From: a virus
Lineage: Duplodnaviria; Heunggongvirae; Uroviricota; Caudoviricetes
Direction: 5' to 3' (one strand)
DNA: 8,465 bases
Virus record (IMG/VR): IMGVR_UViG_2671180454_000010
Part shown: piece by piece, positions 1,687-4,652 of the stretch
How positions within the stretch are numbered: the first letter of the stretch is position 1
Layout of the letters: each line of letters opens with the position of its first letter
Made by a program: the position numbers and the translations under genes
The notes under the pieces: model-generated
What the model was told of the DNA's origin: nothing
The model's input: the letters and a program-made list of their open reading frames with translations, nothing else
Databases searched by the model: none

Positions 1687-2397
1687 TCAAACAGCCTTGC
1701 TATACTTCTGAGAAATCTTCGTTAACTGCTCAATATCAGCCATCAAAGCAATCTTCTTCTGCGACTCATATTCACTAACAAGTTCTTTCATAGTATCAAG
1801 TTCTTTTTTAAGCTTTTGCTTTAACTTATCCAGTTTACCGGAATAATGCTTAGTCAAATTAGCTTCAGCTAACTGAAGAATCTCTTCATCTGTTTTATCA
1901 GTCATCAGAATAAATTGACCAGAACCCCTTAATGCTTGTCTGACATCAATTAACCGGAACCCTTCAGGGATACTTTGAAGAACTTTAGGAACGTCTTCAA
2001 TCGCTGTACCAAAACCATCATTAAAGTTTCCTTCATAATAGATAAACGGGTTTGACTTAATCTCGTAAGCAATATCATATTCTGAAGGTTTCGAGGTTTC
2101 TTCGAAGTTCTTAACAGCATCGTAAGCGACATCAAGTCTAAGACGCTGTGATTTTAAAGCTGGGTAATATTCACGCTCAAGCTCAAATAGTGCTTCAGTT
2201 TTGCAGATATCAGGCATTTCTTGAGGCTCAGGAGACACAAAGGAAATTACCTTTGGTGACATCTTTAGCTCTTGCTCAAGCTCAATGCGCTTGTCATGCT
2301 CTTGACGCTGAATAGTATGTAGCGGATGTTCACCCTGTGGTGACCAGTCTCCGAAGCTATCAACCTTTTTACCGTTAATATATAAATCGTTTGTCAT
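1687..2397 (-). CDS. hypothetical acidic protein, 236 aa (paralog of 4041..4652)
   Basis: ATG at 2395-2397 with AGAGGAAA 7 nt upstream. Collinear homology to the 203-aa ORF: shared PEP motif, DG(F/W)G, then 13 residues to (I/L)PEG.R, then DK(S/T)..E(L/I)...A...L; coiled-coil-like Lys/Glu-rich C-terminus. Confidence 0.6.
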   Translation of the reverse strand: MTNDLYINGKKVDSFGDWSPQGEHPLHTIQRQEHDKRIELEQELKMSPKVISFVSPEPQEMPDICKTEALFELEREYYPALKSQRLRLDVAYDAVKNFEETSKPSEYDIAYEIKSNPFIYYEGNFNDGFGTAIEDVPKVLQSIPEGFRLIDVRQALRGSGQFILMTDKTDEEILQLAEANLTKHYSGKLDKLKQKLKKELDTMKELVSEYESQKKIALMADIEQLTKISQKYSKAV

Positions 2398-2424
2398 TAT
2401 AATTTCCTCTAAGTGTGGTTATTT

Positions 2425-2496
2425 CTTAATAGAGCACCTTCAACGCCAATACACTTAGAAGATGACTTAACGATTTATTAAAGATGCTCTATTAAG
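2425..2496 (-). promoter_or_regulatory. long-range inverted repeat in the leader of the 236-aa ORF
   Basis: Perfect 12-bp arms CTTAATAGAGCA (2425-2436) and TGCTCTATTAAG (2485-2496) separated by 48 bp, between the upstream hairpin and the ribosome-binding site. Confidence 0.3.
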
Positions 2497-2528
2497 AAAA
2501 GCCCTAAACATAATCTGTGAAGGGCTTT
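2497..2528 (-). terminator. GCCCU/AGGGC hairpin with U-tract (hairpin A, module 1)
   Basis: Stem GCCCT (2501-2505) / AGGGC (2521-2525), extendable to AAAGCCCT/AGGGCTTT; minus-strand transcript continues UUUUCUUAAU. Loop 15 nt. Near-identical to the hairpin at 4768-4791. Confidence 0.35.
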
Positions 2529-2600
2529 GGAGGTTTGCTTATAACGTTAACGAAGTTTCAGGAAAACTTTCTTTAAAAGCTCTGTTTAAAAACTCTTAAA

Positions 2601-2627
2601 GAAAGCCCTAACTCATGATTAGGGCAA
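2601..2627 (-). terminator. GCCCUAA/UUAGGGC hairpin with U-rich tail (hairpin B, module 1)
   Basis: Stem GCCCTA (2605-2610) / TAGGGC (2620-2625) with a 9-nt loop; on the minus strand followed by UUUCUUUAAG. Immediately 3' of the conserved core. Confidence 0.35.
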
Positions 2628-2633
2628 AGCTGT

Positions 2634-2745
2634 AAAGGATTCAATAATGAATGAACAAAGACTTTTTGAGATAGCCTCTCAGACCAACCTGAAAGGCTAG
2701 GACGAAAAGCATTGCACCTTTCCAACTCAGAATATCCATTCATCG
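2634..2745 (-). repeat. conserved non-coding element, copy 1 (candidate structured RNA or leader)
   Basis: 112 bp aligning to 4792..4905 with 4 substitutions and one 2-nt indel. The two copies do not share a reading frame across the indel, so the conservation is not protein-coding. Lies upstream of the 236-aa ORF. Confidence 0.7.
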
Positions 2746-2832
2746 CGCGGGCTAGCTCTTCCGCGCTGGCATTATTAATGCTGACCCGATGAGGTGTACT
2801 GGCAATAGCGGACACTACCATTTGTTCTTTTT

Positions 2833-3651
2833 TTAAGCAGCCATCTGATGATATTTTTCCCTGAAGGCTGCCGGGGAGATATTCCCCAGACGAGAGTGAC
2901 GACGCTGACGATTGTAGAAAATCTCAATGTATTCCCGTATTACTGAGATGGCTTCATCCCGGTTATTAAAACGATAGTGGCTCAGGCTCTCATTTTTCAG
3001 CGTTCCCCAGAAGCTTTCCATCGGAGCGTTGTCGTAACAGTTACCTTTACGCGACATTGATGTTTTCAGACCAGACTGCTCCTGTATGACCCGGTAATCG
3101 TATGCGCAGTACTGTGAACCTCGATCAGAGTGGTGGATTAGCCCGGCAGGTGGGCGCTGGCTCCTGAGCGCCATAAACAGGGCTTTACCTGTCAGCTCTT
3201 TTGTCATGCGCTCTCCCATGGCGTAGCCGACAATTTCGCACGTATAAACATCTTTGATGCCAGCGAGGTACAACCATCCCTCCTGTGTGGCAACATACGT
3301 CAGGTCCGCCACCCAGACCTGATTTGGTGCTGTAGGAGCGAACGTCTGGTTCAGCAGATTTGGCGCAACTGGCAGATTGTGGTTCGAGTTCGTAGTCGCT
3401 CTGAACTTGCGTTTCTGCTTACAGCGTAGCCTTAGCTCCTTACGAAGACGTGCCAGTCGGTCACGACCAACGATGATGCCATTCTCTGCCAGCTCCGTCT
3501 GGAGCCGCCGGGTTCCATATGTTTCGCGAGTGCGGATATGTGCCACCTTAATCTCCAGTTTTAGCCGCTCATCACTTTGTTTTCTGTCTGAGGGTTCATG
3601 CTGTACCCAGTTGTAATAACCGCTCCTGGATACACCAAATACCTGACACAT
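2833..3651 (-). CDS. IS3-family transposase OrfB (catalytic DDE domain), expressed as OrfAB fusion
   Basis: 272 aa from the first ATG. The same frame is open upstream to the A7 slippery site and is -1 relative to orfA. Integrase-like catalytic region typical of IS3-family OrfB (…HSDRGSQYCAYDY…RKGNCYDNAPMESFWGTLK…). Confidence 0.85.
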   Translation of the reverse strand: MCQVFGVSRSGYYNWVQHEPSDRKQSDERLKLEIKVAHIRTRETYGTRRLQTELAENGIIVGRDRLARLRKELRLRCKQKRKFRATTNSNHNLPVAPNLLNQTFAPTAPNQVWVADLTYVATQEGWLYLAGIKDVYTCEIVGYAMGERMTKELTGKALFMALRSQRPPAGLIHHSDRGSQYCAYDYRVIQEQSGLKTSMSRKGNCYDNAPMESFWGTLKNESLSHYRFNNRDEAISVIREYIEIFYNRQRRHSRLGNISPAAFREKYHQMAA

Positions 3652-3686
3652 CGCTTCAATGGGAAATTGTTGTCGCCATTGTTCGA

Positions 3687-3989
3687 TTAACGCGTATTTT
3701 TCAGCGACTCCTGTGCAAAATACGCTGTTGCTTTTTTTAATATATCTCGCTCAAGGCGAGCTTCATTTAACGCCTTACGCAGTTGCAGAATTTCAGATTC
3801 CAGTTCAGCCACCGTGCGGGAACCAGGAGTACCGAGCCCTTTTCTGGCGGCGGTAACCCATTGTCCTAAAGTGCCTTCAGGAAGAGATAATCGGGAAGCG
3901 CCTTCACTGATCGAAAGTTGATTTTCAGGAACCGTTCTGACAGCTTCGGCTTTGAACTCTTTAGAGTAACGTTGGGTTTTTCTGCTCAT
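3687..3989 (-). CDS. IS3-family transposase OrfA (HTH plus leucine-zipper-like region), 100 aa
   Basis: ATG at 3987-3989 with AGGAGC upstream. C-terminus (…ILQLRKALNEARLERDILKKATAYFAQE…) typical of IS3-family OrfA; ends just after the frameshift hairpin. Confidence 0.85.
   Translation of the reverse strand: MSRKTQRYSKEFKAEAVRTVPENQLSISEGASRLSLPEGTLGQWVTAARKGLGTPGSRTVAELESEILQLRKALNEARLERDILKKATAYFAQESLKNTR
3692..3739 (-). promoter_or_regulatory. programmed -1 ribosomal frameshift site of the IS (A7G slippery run plus downstream hairpin)
   Basis: Minus-strand TTA AAA AAA G (complement of T-run 3732-3738) in the orfA frame; slipping -1 reads …SNSVFCTGVAEKYALIEQWRQQFPIEAMCQVFG… into OrfB. A 9-bp stem GCGUAUUUU/AAAAUACGC (3692-3725) starts about 6 nt downstream. 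Confidence 0.6.
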
Positions 3990-4040
3990 TATTAGCTCCT
4001 TCTGATGCCATTCTATTTCAGGAAGGAGTGTCCGTTAAAC

Positions 4041-4652
4041 TCAGGCTACCTCACTAATCAGCTTAGCCAGTCTTGATTTCAGCAAATTAATCTCATTTTC
4101 TCTTGCTTTCATCAGTTTCTCTTTGGCAATTTCTTCAAGCTCAGCTTGTGATTTATCAGCAACAATTAGAGACAGTCGATGTGGTGCTCTGACAGCTCTT
4201 TCTGTACGAACAACTCTTTGACCTTCTGGTAAATCTGCAATCACTTTACCAATCTCTACAGGGTCATACCCCCAACCGTCACGGTCTAGTCGAGAGAAAT
4301 AAGCATAAGAATTGGTTTGAAGCTCCATCGAAATAACCATTTCGTCAATTTCGTCTTCAAGCTTGGACTGAATTTTCTCGTAAACACTTCTCATTGCTTC
4401 TTGAGAGTCTTTAATAGCTTGGAAATATCGGCGTTGTAGCTTCAACTTCAAATCAAGTTCACACCGTTCGTTCATAGAAAAATCAATTTCAACTCTTGGA
4501 ATCTCGAGTGGTTCTGGTGGAATATATGGACCTTTATTTACTTCGTGTGATTCCCGCCAAGCTCTATCAAAAGATTCACGCAAAGTTAATTCGTGAATAT
4601 CAAGTGCACTTGGTCTGTGTTCGATAAGCATTTCATGTTCATTTCTAATCAT
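4041..4652 (-). CDS. hypothetical acidic protein, 203 aa (paralog of 1687..2397); 3' end formed by the IS terminus
   Basis: ATG at 4650-4652 with AAGGGGTGA 5 nt upstream. Homologous to the 236-aa ORF (see above). The last 4 codons and the stop (4041-4053) lie inside the IS terminal inverted repeat, and the protein is about 30 residues shorter at the C-terminus than its paralog. Confidence 0.6.
   Translation of the reverse strand: MIRNEHEMLIEHRPSALDIHELTLRESFDRAWRESHEVNKGPYIPPEPLEIPRVEIDFSMNERCELDLKLKLQRRYFQAIKDSQEAMRSVYEKIQSKLEDEIDEMVISMELQTNSYAYFSRLDRDGWGYDPVEIGKVIADLPEGQRVVRTERAVRAPHRLSLIVADKSQAELEEIAKEKLMKARENEINLLKSRLAKLISEVA

Follow-up and report, generated by a model that had tools for sequence, protein, structure and literature searches.

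The window analyzed here, meaning the full 8,465-nt stretch of the viral record IMGVR_UViG_2671180454_000010, carries on its minus strand two open reading frames (ORF A and ORF B), each of which is preceded by a copy of a conserved noncoding element. An earlier reading of this DNA, made from its letters only (hereafter, the sequence-only reading), had described the two products as related acidic proteins with a collinear motif core, and most of that description stands. Both ORFs were confirmed at the positions it had given, BLASTP aligned their products with 25% amino acid (aa) identity over 156 aa (E=2e-17), and the two are homologous. Both proteins are mildly acidic (isoelectric points of 5.15 for ORF A and 5.32 for ORF B), and they have in common the motifs PEP, DG[FW]G, [IL]PEG.R, and DK[ST]..E[LI]; however, the spacer from DGxG to xPEG is 12 residues long, not 13 as had been stated. 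The two copies of the element, which that reading had also recognized upstream of each ORF, are ~112 nt in length and 95-100% identical, whereas the coding sequences (CDSs) downstream of them share just 25% aa identity. Comparison with intact loci identified ORF A and ORF B as two allelic types (A and B) of one hypervariable gene, which heads the "tail" operon of a genomic island. The features of the window are listed in Table 1.

Intact islands in Escherichia coli are 11-12 kb long (L001 and L002; labels of this form denote the island loci that we compared). They encode a large serine recombinase (LSR) of 506-507 aa at one end, a Rep-initiator-like HTH_36 protein with iterons, a Dam methylase, and small genes of unknown function. 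The operon consists of the conserved element as leader, the ORF A/B family gene, an optional gene for a 102- or 138-aa protein, a gene for a small protein (p69), a gene for a tape measure protein (TMP) of 650-725 aa, and a gene for a hub protein (Dit-like baseplate). At the syntenic position, the allele is of the A type in L001 and of the B type in L002, and L002 contains a single copy of the element. Because the two types occupy the same island position, with one gene and one leader each, ORF A and ORF B are alleles of one locus and not tandem paralogs.

We used a 20-nt core of the element to retrieve 18 further loci. The core is invariant in 17 further loci that have a downstream ORF, and a family member of 233-250 aa follows 230-376 nt later in all but one, the exception being a likely chance match in a Eubacteriales metagenome-assembled genome. 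The succession of leader, 233-238-aa ORF, and 67-71-aa ORF was found in 17 loci; where the locus is long enough and not disrupted by an insertion sequence (IS), a TMP of 647-725 aa and a hub of 254-262 aa then follow. The small protein p69 (67-71 aa), for which no family match was found, is conserved between the variable gene and the TMP gene in every island. Islands of this kind are known in Escherichia, Shigella, Salmonella, Citrobacter, and Pluralibacter, and the right-hand island segment gave a megablast match in 493 of 5,426 E. coli genomes.

The side-by-side layout within the window, which the sequence-only reading had taken for divergent paralogs kept together and each furnished with its own element, is instead a product of rearrangement. 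Positions 1-2745 are 100% identical to L004, an island of Shigella sonnei at tonB/yciI, and positions 2790-8465 are 99.9% identical to L009, an island at yecE; the 44 bp between these segments, which derive from ybaV, belong to neither island. Within complete S. sonnei chromosomes (for example, CP104423 at ~1.83-1.85 Mb and CP151357 at ~2.49-2.51 Mb), the island between tonB and yciI encodes the exact ORF A protein and a separate island remnant in yecE the exact 203-aa ORF B, such that one chromosome holds one A-type and one B-type island. Intact islands have one gene and one leader.

At the junction in the window, leader copy A runs into a fragment of the chromosomal gene ybaV, of which the piece at 2736-2788 has matches in 5,421 of 5,426 E. 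coli genomes. The fragment overlaps the leader by a perfect 10-nt microhomology, CGATGAATGG, and everything upstream of CGATGAATGG is gone from copy A, including the promoter. A complete IS600 follows; it has no target-site duplication, since its 3-bp flanks are unlike (CGA and CTA). Neither window junction was found in the 5,426 E. coli genomes or in JGI metagenomes. The join may therefore be either a strain-specific rearrangement or an assembly chimera. As a separate observation, a lambdoid prophage, not the remainder of ORF B, lies beyond this IS600 in ordinary S. sonnei genomes.

IS600 cuts ORF B after residue ~200 and replaces its last ~31 codons, with the stop and final codons derived from IS600, whereas intact B-type proteins are 234 aa long. 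The 203-aa ORF, which had been read as a gene, is thus an IS600-truncated pseudogene and not a natural gene product. Further damage is evident elsewhere in the window: the left edge (positions 1-37) matches the end of an IS630-family element, which cuts the TMP gene, and the Rep-like gene at 6893-7782 is frameshifted into ORFs of 129 and 124 aa, compared with 306 aa in L002. The LSR lies beyond the window sequence. With the TMP cut, the Rep-like gene frameshifted, ORF B truncated, and the promoter of ORF A lost, both window islands are decayed remnants, and the adjacency of ORF A and ORF B is secondary, an IS-mediated joining of two decayed, IS-riddled islands.

Table 1. Features of the window, with positions counted from its first letter.
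Feature	Position	Strand	Remarks
ORF A (A-type allele)	1687-2397	minus	236 aa; CDS intact, promoter lost in the window arrangement
ORF B (B-type allele, IS600-truncated)	4041-4652	minus	203 aa; native part 4054-4652
Leader core, copy A	2634-2745	minus	Precedes ORF A; invariant hairpin GAAAGG..CUUUUC and co-varying P3; 5' end cut, promoterless
Terminator-like hairpin T1	2595-2625	minus	Within optional ~100-nt module; present in copy A, absent from copy B
Terminator-like hairpin T2, copy A	2497-2526	minus	GCCCT...AGGGC and U run; in all leaders
Long hairpin, copy A	2422-2499	minus	22-nt arms; 25 nt upstream of ORF A start codon
Sigma-70 promoter, TTGACA-17-CATAAT with TG	4952-4980	minus	11/12 matches; in the window, copy B only
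5'-terminal hairpin of leader transcript	4926-4942	minus	Terminator-like; stem co-varies between loci
Leader core, copy B	4792-4905	minus	Precedes ORF B; conserved
Terminator-like hairpin T2, copy B	4763-4791	minus	Read from sequence; conserved
Long hairpin, copy B	4679-4765	minus	27-nt arms; 27 nt upstream of ORF B start codon
p69	1455-1664	minus	69 aa, basic (isoelectric point 9.9); between ORF A and TMP
Island TMP (TMP_3 domain)	21-1298	minus	Cut at ~residue 421 of 688 by IS630
ybaV fragment (rearrangement junction)	2736-2789	minus	53 bp, 100% identical to chromosomal E. coli ybaV
IS600, complete (IS3 family)	2790-4053	minus	orfA 3687-3989; orfB 2833-3651

The alleles reassort against the rest of the operon. 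Between L001 and L018, the TMPs are 97% and the hubs 99% identical, whereas the variable ORFs share 22% identity; between L002 and L019, the variable ORFs are 98% identical and the TMPs 48%. Based on identity matrices, divergence of the ORF is uncorrelated with that of the island tail proteins (r~0), whereas TMP and hub vary together (r 0.56-0.66). Within the A type, the central domain alone has been swapped, and the termini are conserved. Part of the earlier proposal of a specificity-diversified module therefore survives, in that the gene diversifies in the manner of a cassette (22% identity for the ORF against 97-99% for TMP and hub), and the part that rested on a pair of paralogs falls with the rearrangement. 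Because the alleles reassort freely against the island tail proteins, the variable surface of the gene product most likely faces something outside the island.

The sequence-only reading could place neither protein in a family, and our searches gave the same outcome: neither product had a match in Pfam, NCBIfam, PHROGs, or PADLOC, and a sequence-profile search of the PDB returned only noise (E>=0.2). A profile search of 1.84 billion representative sequences recovered about six full-length clusters at 50% identity, and all family members came from Escherichia, Shigella, Salmonella, Citrobacter, or Pluralibacter. An A-type alignment found no related loci among GTDB representative genomes, TBLASTN with ORF A found no match in 50,697 phage records, and the family profile found none among all ORFs of phage Silverhawkium. 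AlphaFold2 gave a mean confidence (pLDDT) of 49 from the single sequence; we replaced this model with one built from a nine-sequence alignment (pLDDT 80). The latter has a poorly ordered N-terminus and a long antiparallel helical hairpin (residues 66-100 and 170-218), whose C-terminal helix agrees with the coiled-coil-like tail described previously. Between the two arms is a small alpha/beta tip of ~70 residues (~101-169), where the model places the invariant DGxG, PEG, and DK motifs. Foldseek identified no significant fold match for this model (all E-values >0.04). Of the checks that had been proposed, the fold and profile searches led to no characterized family, and the genomic neighborhoods revealed a conserved island operon.

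The TMP and hub connect the island to Felix O1-like phages, a group with broad use in typing and therapy. Over 100% of its length, the island TMP shares 30% identity with TMPs of Mooglevirus and Felixounavirus. The hub is 55% identical to gp66 of Silverhawkium, the product of the gene directly after the phage TMP gene, and 60-90% identical to proteins in 298 phage records; among the matches listed, all are Felix O1-like phages of 81-92 kb. When 23 island proteins were compared with the Silverhawkium ORFs, only the TMP and the hub had matches. Their phage counterparts are encoded one after the other, by the TMP and post-TMP genes, in virulent Felix O1-like myophages (Ounavirinae). Islands L001 and L002 have no recognized genes for capsid, terminase, sheath, tube, or lysis. 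p69, the optional 102-aa protein (p102), and the variable ORF showed no similarity to the phage chaperones gp68 (75 aa) and gp69.

A comparable situation is known from Vibrio cholerae, in which the PLEs (elements resembling phage-inducible chromosomal islands) are LSR-integrated satellites of the virulent myophage ICP1 and build chimeric tails (PMC12987554, Nature 2026). The products of the PLE cluster of tail assembly chaperone (TAC), TMP, and BhuB have 20, 20, and 41% identity to ICP1 proteins, and how the PLE TMP gets selected is still unknown (PMC12987554). By analogy, this TAC-TMP-BhuB cluster is the closest counterpart of the operon described here. Like the PLEs, the island is a small element with LSR integration and a replication initiator; it has a partial tail pathway, with TMP and hub identities to a virulent myophage of 30% and 55-70% (20% and 41% in PLEs); and it has genes in the chaperone position just upstream of the TMP gene. 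Unlike the PLEs, it is found in Enterobacteriaceae, and its presumed helper is Felix O1-like and not ICP1. The variable gene also differs from the PLE TAC gene in being about twice its size, in being hypervariable, and in having no TAC similarity in Pfam, PHROGs, or the fold matches listed. Since TMP and hub alone are homologous to phage proteins and the other virion genes are lacking, the island is probably a PLE-like satellite that builds chimeric tails, with Felix O1-like phages as its likely helpers. In our literature searches, we came across neither a satellite of E. coli or Felix O1 nor an equivalent element in Enterobacteriaceae.

Expression of the operon would begin at the leader, which is ~300 nt long and noncoding. 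Its parts occur in the order promoter, 5' hairpin, invariant hairpin (GAAAGGUGCAAUGCUUUUC), P3, terminator-like hairpin(s), long hairpin, and Shine-Dalgarno sequence, and the promoter is kept in all intact islands. Both arms of P3 carry substitutions, yet a stem of 10-13 bp is retained in each of the 14 distinct variants; the changes include G-C to A-U, C-G to U-A, and G-U pairs that make sense on the minus strand only. One or two hairpins resembling intrinsic terminators lie 3' of P3 (one to three per whole leader). Directly 5' of the Shine-Dalgarno sequence is a long hairpin of 22-27 bp, the position and pairing of which are kept across islands although its sequence varies or co-varies. The element, described as RNA-like in the sequence-only reading, indeed behaves as a transcribed, structured RNA leader of the operon, based on a promoter with 11 of 12 matches and the pairing of P3 kept in 14 of 14 variants, and it presumably functions at the RNA level. 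We infer a promoter-proximal, terminator-gated leader under the control of antitermination.

Comparable arrangements, in which a strong, constitutive-looking promoter and a short, structured, terminated transcript likewise precede a long structural operon, are lambda PR'-6S RNA-tR', HK022 put, and the P4 CI immunity RNA. The logic of the leader resembles that of lambda PR'-tR' or of put/nut-type systems; however, the leader has no Rfam family, the sole match being a chance microRNA hit (E=0.34; 25.8 bits compared with a gathering score of 90 bits). No antisense or second copy of the leader core, and no complementary target, was found elsewhere in the intact island. We also considered the leader as a small coding ORF and rejected this reading, as a 28-nt insertion interrupts the candidate frame (MDGYSELERC...), which other variants lack.

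Several features of the leader vary among islands. A 28-nt insertion (GTGAGGTATGTTCTATACCGARCATTCT), itself a small hairpin, is present immediately 5' of the invariant hairpin in L002, L015, L017, L023, and L025, and a 34-nt insertion is present within the loop of the last terminator of some leaders. The leader is modular, since these two parts and the ~100-nt module that contains T1 are optional. Within 4830-4890 (minus strand) and the equivalent positions of L002, L013, L019, and L021, the invariant CUUUUC(G) has two potential pairing partners, the upstream GAAAGG and a downstream CGAAAAG. The alternative CUUUUCG/CGAAAAG pairing is possible in half of the leader variants and would enclose P3. 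Because the two pairings are mutually exclusive, they suggest that the leader RNA may switch between two folds. The long hairpins of both copies may be RNase III-type processing sites or additional terminators.

We tentatively favor the explanation that the variable gene encodes a noncatalytic accessory or selectivity factor of a tail-hijack module, a reading that we place a little short of probable. As a chaperone, adaptor, or selector, the protein would assist the island TMP and hub in joining tails derived from the helper. Its variable surface would fit helper or host proteins, and its production would require transcription to pass the leader terminators. Several observations weigh against this explanation. 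The allele varies independently of the TMP, p69, and hub of its own island, which makes a dedicated TMP chaperone less likely; no frameshift of the G/GT type joins the gene to p69; the coiled-coil fold matches are unspecific, with Foldseek E-values that all exceed 0.04; and the position in the operon would suit an inhibitor or a capsid factor equally well.

Known chaperones offer partial parallels to such a factor. The lambda gpG/gpGT-type chaperones and Mooglevirus gp69/gp68 are likewise acidic and encoded directly upstream of TMP in the same operon, but in the island p69 intervenes, and the variable gene has no -1 frameshift partner and does not co-vary with TMP. A G/GT-type frameshift was considered and rejected, as stop codons close the p69 frame upstream of the ATG, and p69 is equipped with a Shine-Dalgarno sequence of its own. 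An hhalign comparison with Silverhawkium gp69 gave no match (probability 0.1%). Prefoldin/Skp-type holdases and tip proteins of type III secretion systems (IpaD) scored at the level of generic coiled coils, with no sequence similarity. Tai tail interference was considered as a parallel and found not to be relevant.

The main rival to the accessory-factor explanation is an inhibitor directed against the helper. Under this explanation, the protein would bind the TMP, TAC, or tube of the helper and block helper tails, from which the island TMP and hub would escape, and the alleles would record an arms race with escape mutants. There is precedent in Rta of PLE11, an 80-aa inhibitor of the helper TMP; this satellite protein of unknown fold causes ICP1 to be tailless, and escape mutations occur in the phage TMP (PMC12987554). 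The independence of reassortment from the island tail proteins, which makes an external target probable, and the lack of any phage homologue of the gene also fit an inhibitor. However, Rta is encoded outside the tail cluster and is expressed before infection, whereas the gene examined here is 235 aa long, heads the tail operon, and sits behind terminator-like hairpins; we consider an Rta-like role unlikely, though a serious competitor. The protein p69 is close in size to Rta.

A broader proposal, which we regard as possible but doubtful, is that the islands form an undescribed family of Enterobacteriaceae satellites that parasitize virulent Felix O1-like phages through the building of chimeric tails. 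In this scenario, the ORF A/B gene would provide hypervariable specificity directed at the helper, whether by selecting the island TMP or by inhibiting that of the helper, and a new leader RNA acting in cis would turn the gene on by controlling read-through of the terminators.

The sequence-only reading had suggested immunity, exclusion, or anti-defense modules, in which the alleles would be specificities in competition between islands or phages. Discrete, highly divergent allelic types between conserved flanks would fit this idea, as would the S. sonnei chromosome with one A-type and one B-type island; however, the side-by-side layout that motivated it is a rearrangement artifact, the search of PADLOC and defense families was empty, and the gene is part of a tail operon and not of a defense hotspot. 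Because of this position and context, we favor tail hijacking and consider a role in immunity or exclusion quite improbable. Somewhat lower in plausibility is a role in capsid sizing or packaging, in which the protein would act as a scaffold of the Sid or TcaP kind and adapt the helper's capsid (~86 kb) to a genome of ~11 kb. The variable protein resembles known external scaffolds of satellites in being largely helical and in its length of ~235 aa, and the island has no recognizable capsid-remodeling gene; against this, the neighbors are tail genes and not head genes, and no scaffolding-protein fold was among the matches listed.

Far less plausible is a type III toxin-antitoxin or abortive-infection pair. 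Although the succession of promoter, structured RNA, terminator, and ORF resembles that of ToxIN-type loci, Tandem Repeats Finder detected no tandem array in either leader (the lone match was a 13-nt unit in 2.6 copies), no ToxN, CptN, TenpN, or AbiE-like match was found in Pfam or PADLOC, the predicted fold is a coiled coil and not an endoribonuclease, and tail genes follow in the same operon. The label "transposase," under which NCBI and UniRef list the A-type proteins and for which we found nothing beyond that record name, is effectively refuted: Pfam and NCBIfam searches at E<=0.1 detected no DDE/rve, HUH, or serine/tyrosine recombinase domain, the B-type homologues are named "hypothetical," the model consists of a helical hairpin and a small alpha/beta tip, and the gene has a fixed place in a conserved operon in 17 loci, with no flanking inverted repeats found.

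Chimeric-tail satellites were first reported in 2026, in Vibrio PLEs alone (PMC12987554). If our interpretation is correct, the same strategy would be directed at Felix O1-like phages in E. coli, Shigella, and Salmonella and would be accessible in genetically tractable hosts; matches to the islands occur in up to ~9% of complete E. coli genomes. The variable gene is the only part of the module that is both universal and hypervariable, which makes it a candidate for the step of selection or interference, and the conserved leader would give easy access to the way in which the module is turned on. As to annotation, the name "transposase" should be dropped from thousands of entries, and the 203-aa ORF needs a flag as a pseudogene truncated by IS600; what looks like tandem paralogy should be taken for a rearrangement driven by ISs, of a kind typical of Shigella.

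Three features outside the operon were also observed. An unannotated 25-aa hydrophobic peptide, MGLIIAWTLLGLFVGCIINNAVNKN, is encoded at window positions 5005-5082 (minus strand) and ends just before the leader promoter; the ATG of MGLIIAWTLLGLFVGCIINNAVNKN overlaps the stop codon of an upstream 148-aa ORF (TAATG). Most other islands have an ORF of 21-25 aa that resembles a single transmembrane segment, including a second, unrelated hydrophobic version, MELVIICFVLIGMIAGASIKV. Within the Rep-initiator-like gene are three direct repeats of ~14-23 nt (GTGACATTTTGTCAC) at a spacing of 22-23 nt (7378-7436 in the window and 15397-15464 in L002). The GTGACATTTTGTCAC repeats resemble origin iterons, and the window gene shifts frame exactly there; because of this change of frame, the window copy of the Rep-like gene is a pseudogene. 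Near the end opposite the LSR, beyond the Dam methylase gene, a 183-aa serine recombinase of the resolvase/invertase type is encoded in L001 (19829-20380) and L009 (4908-5459).

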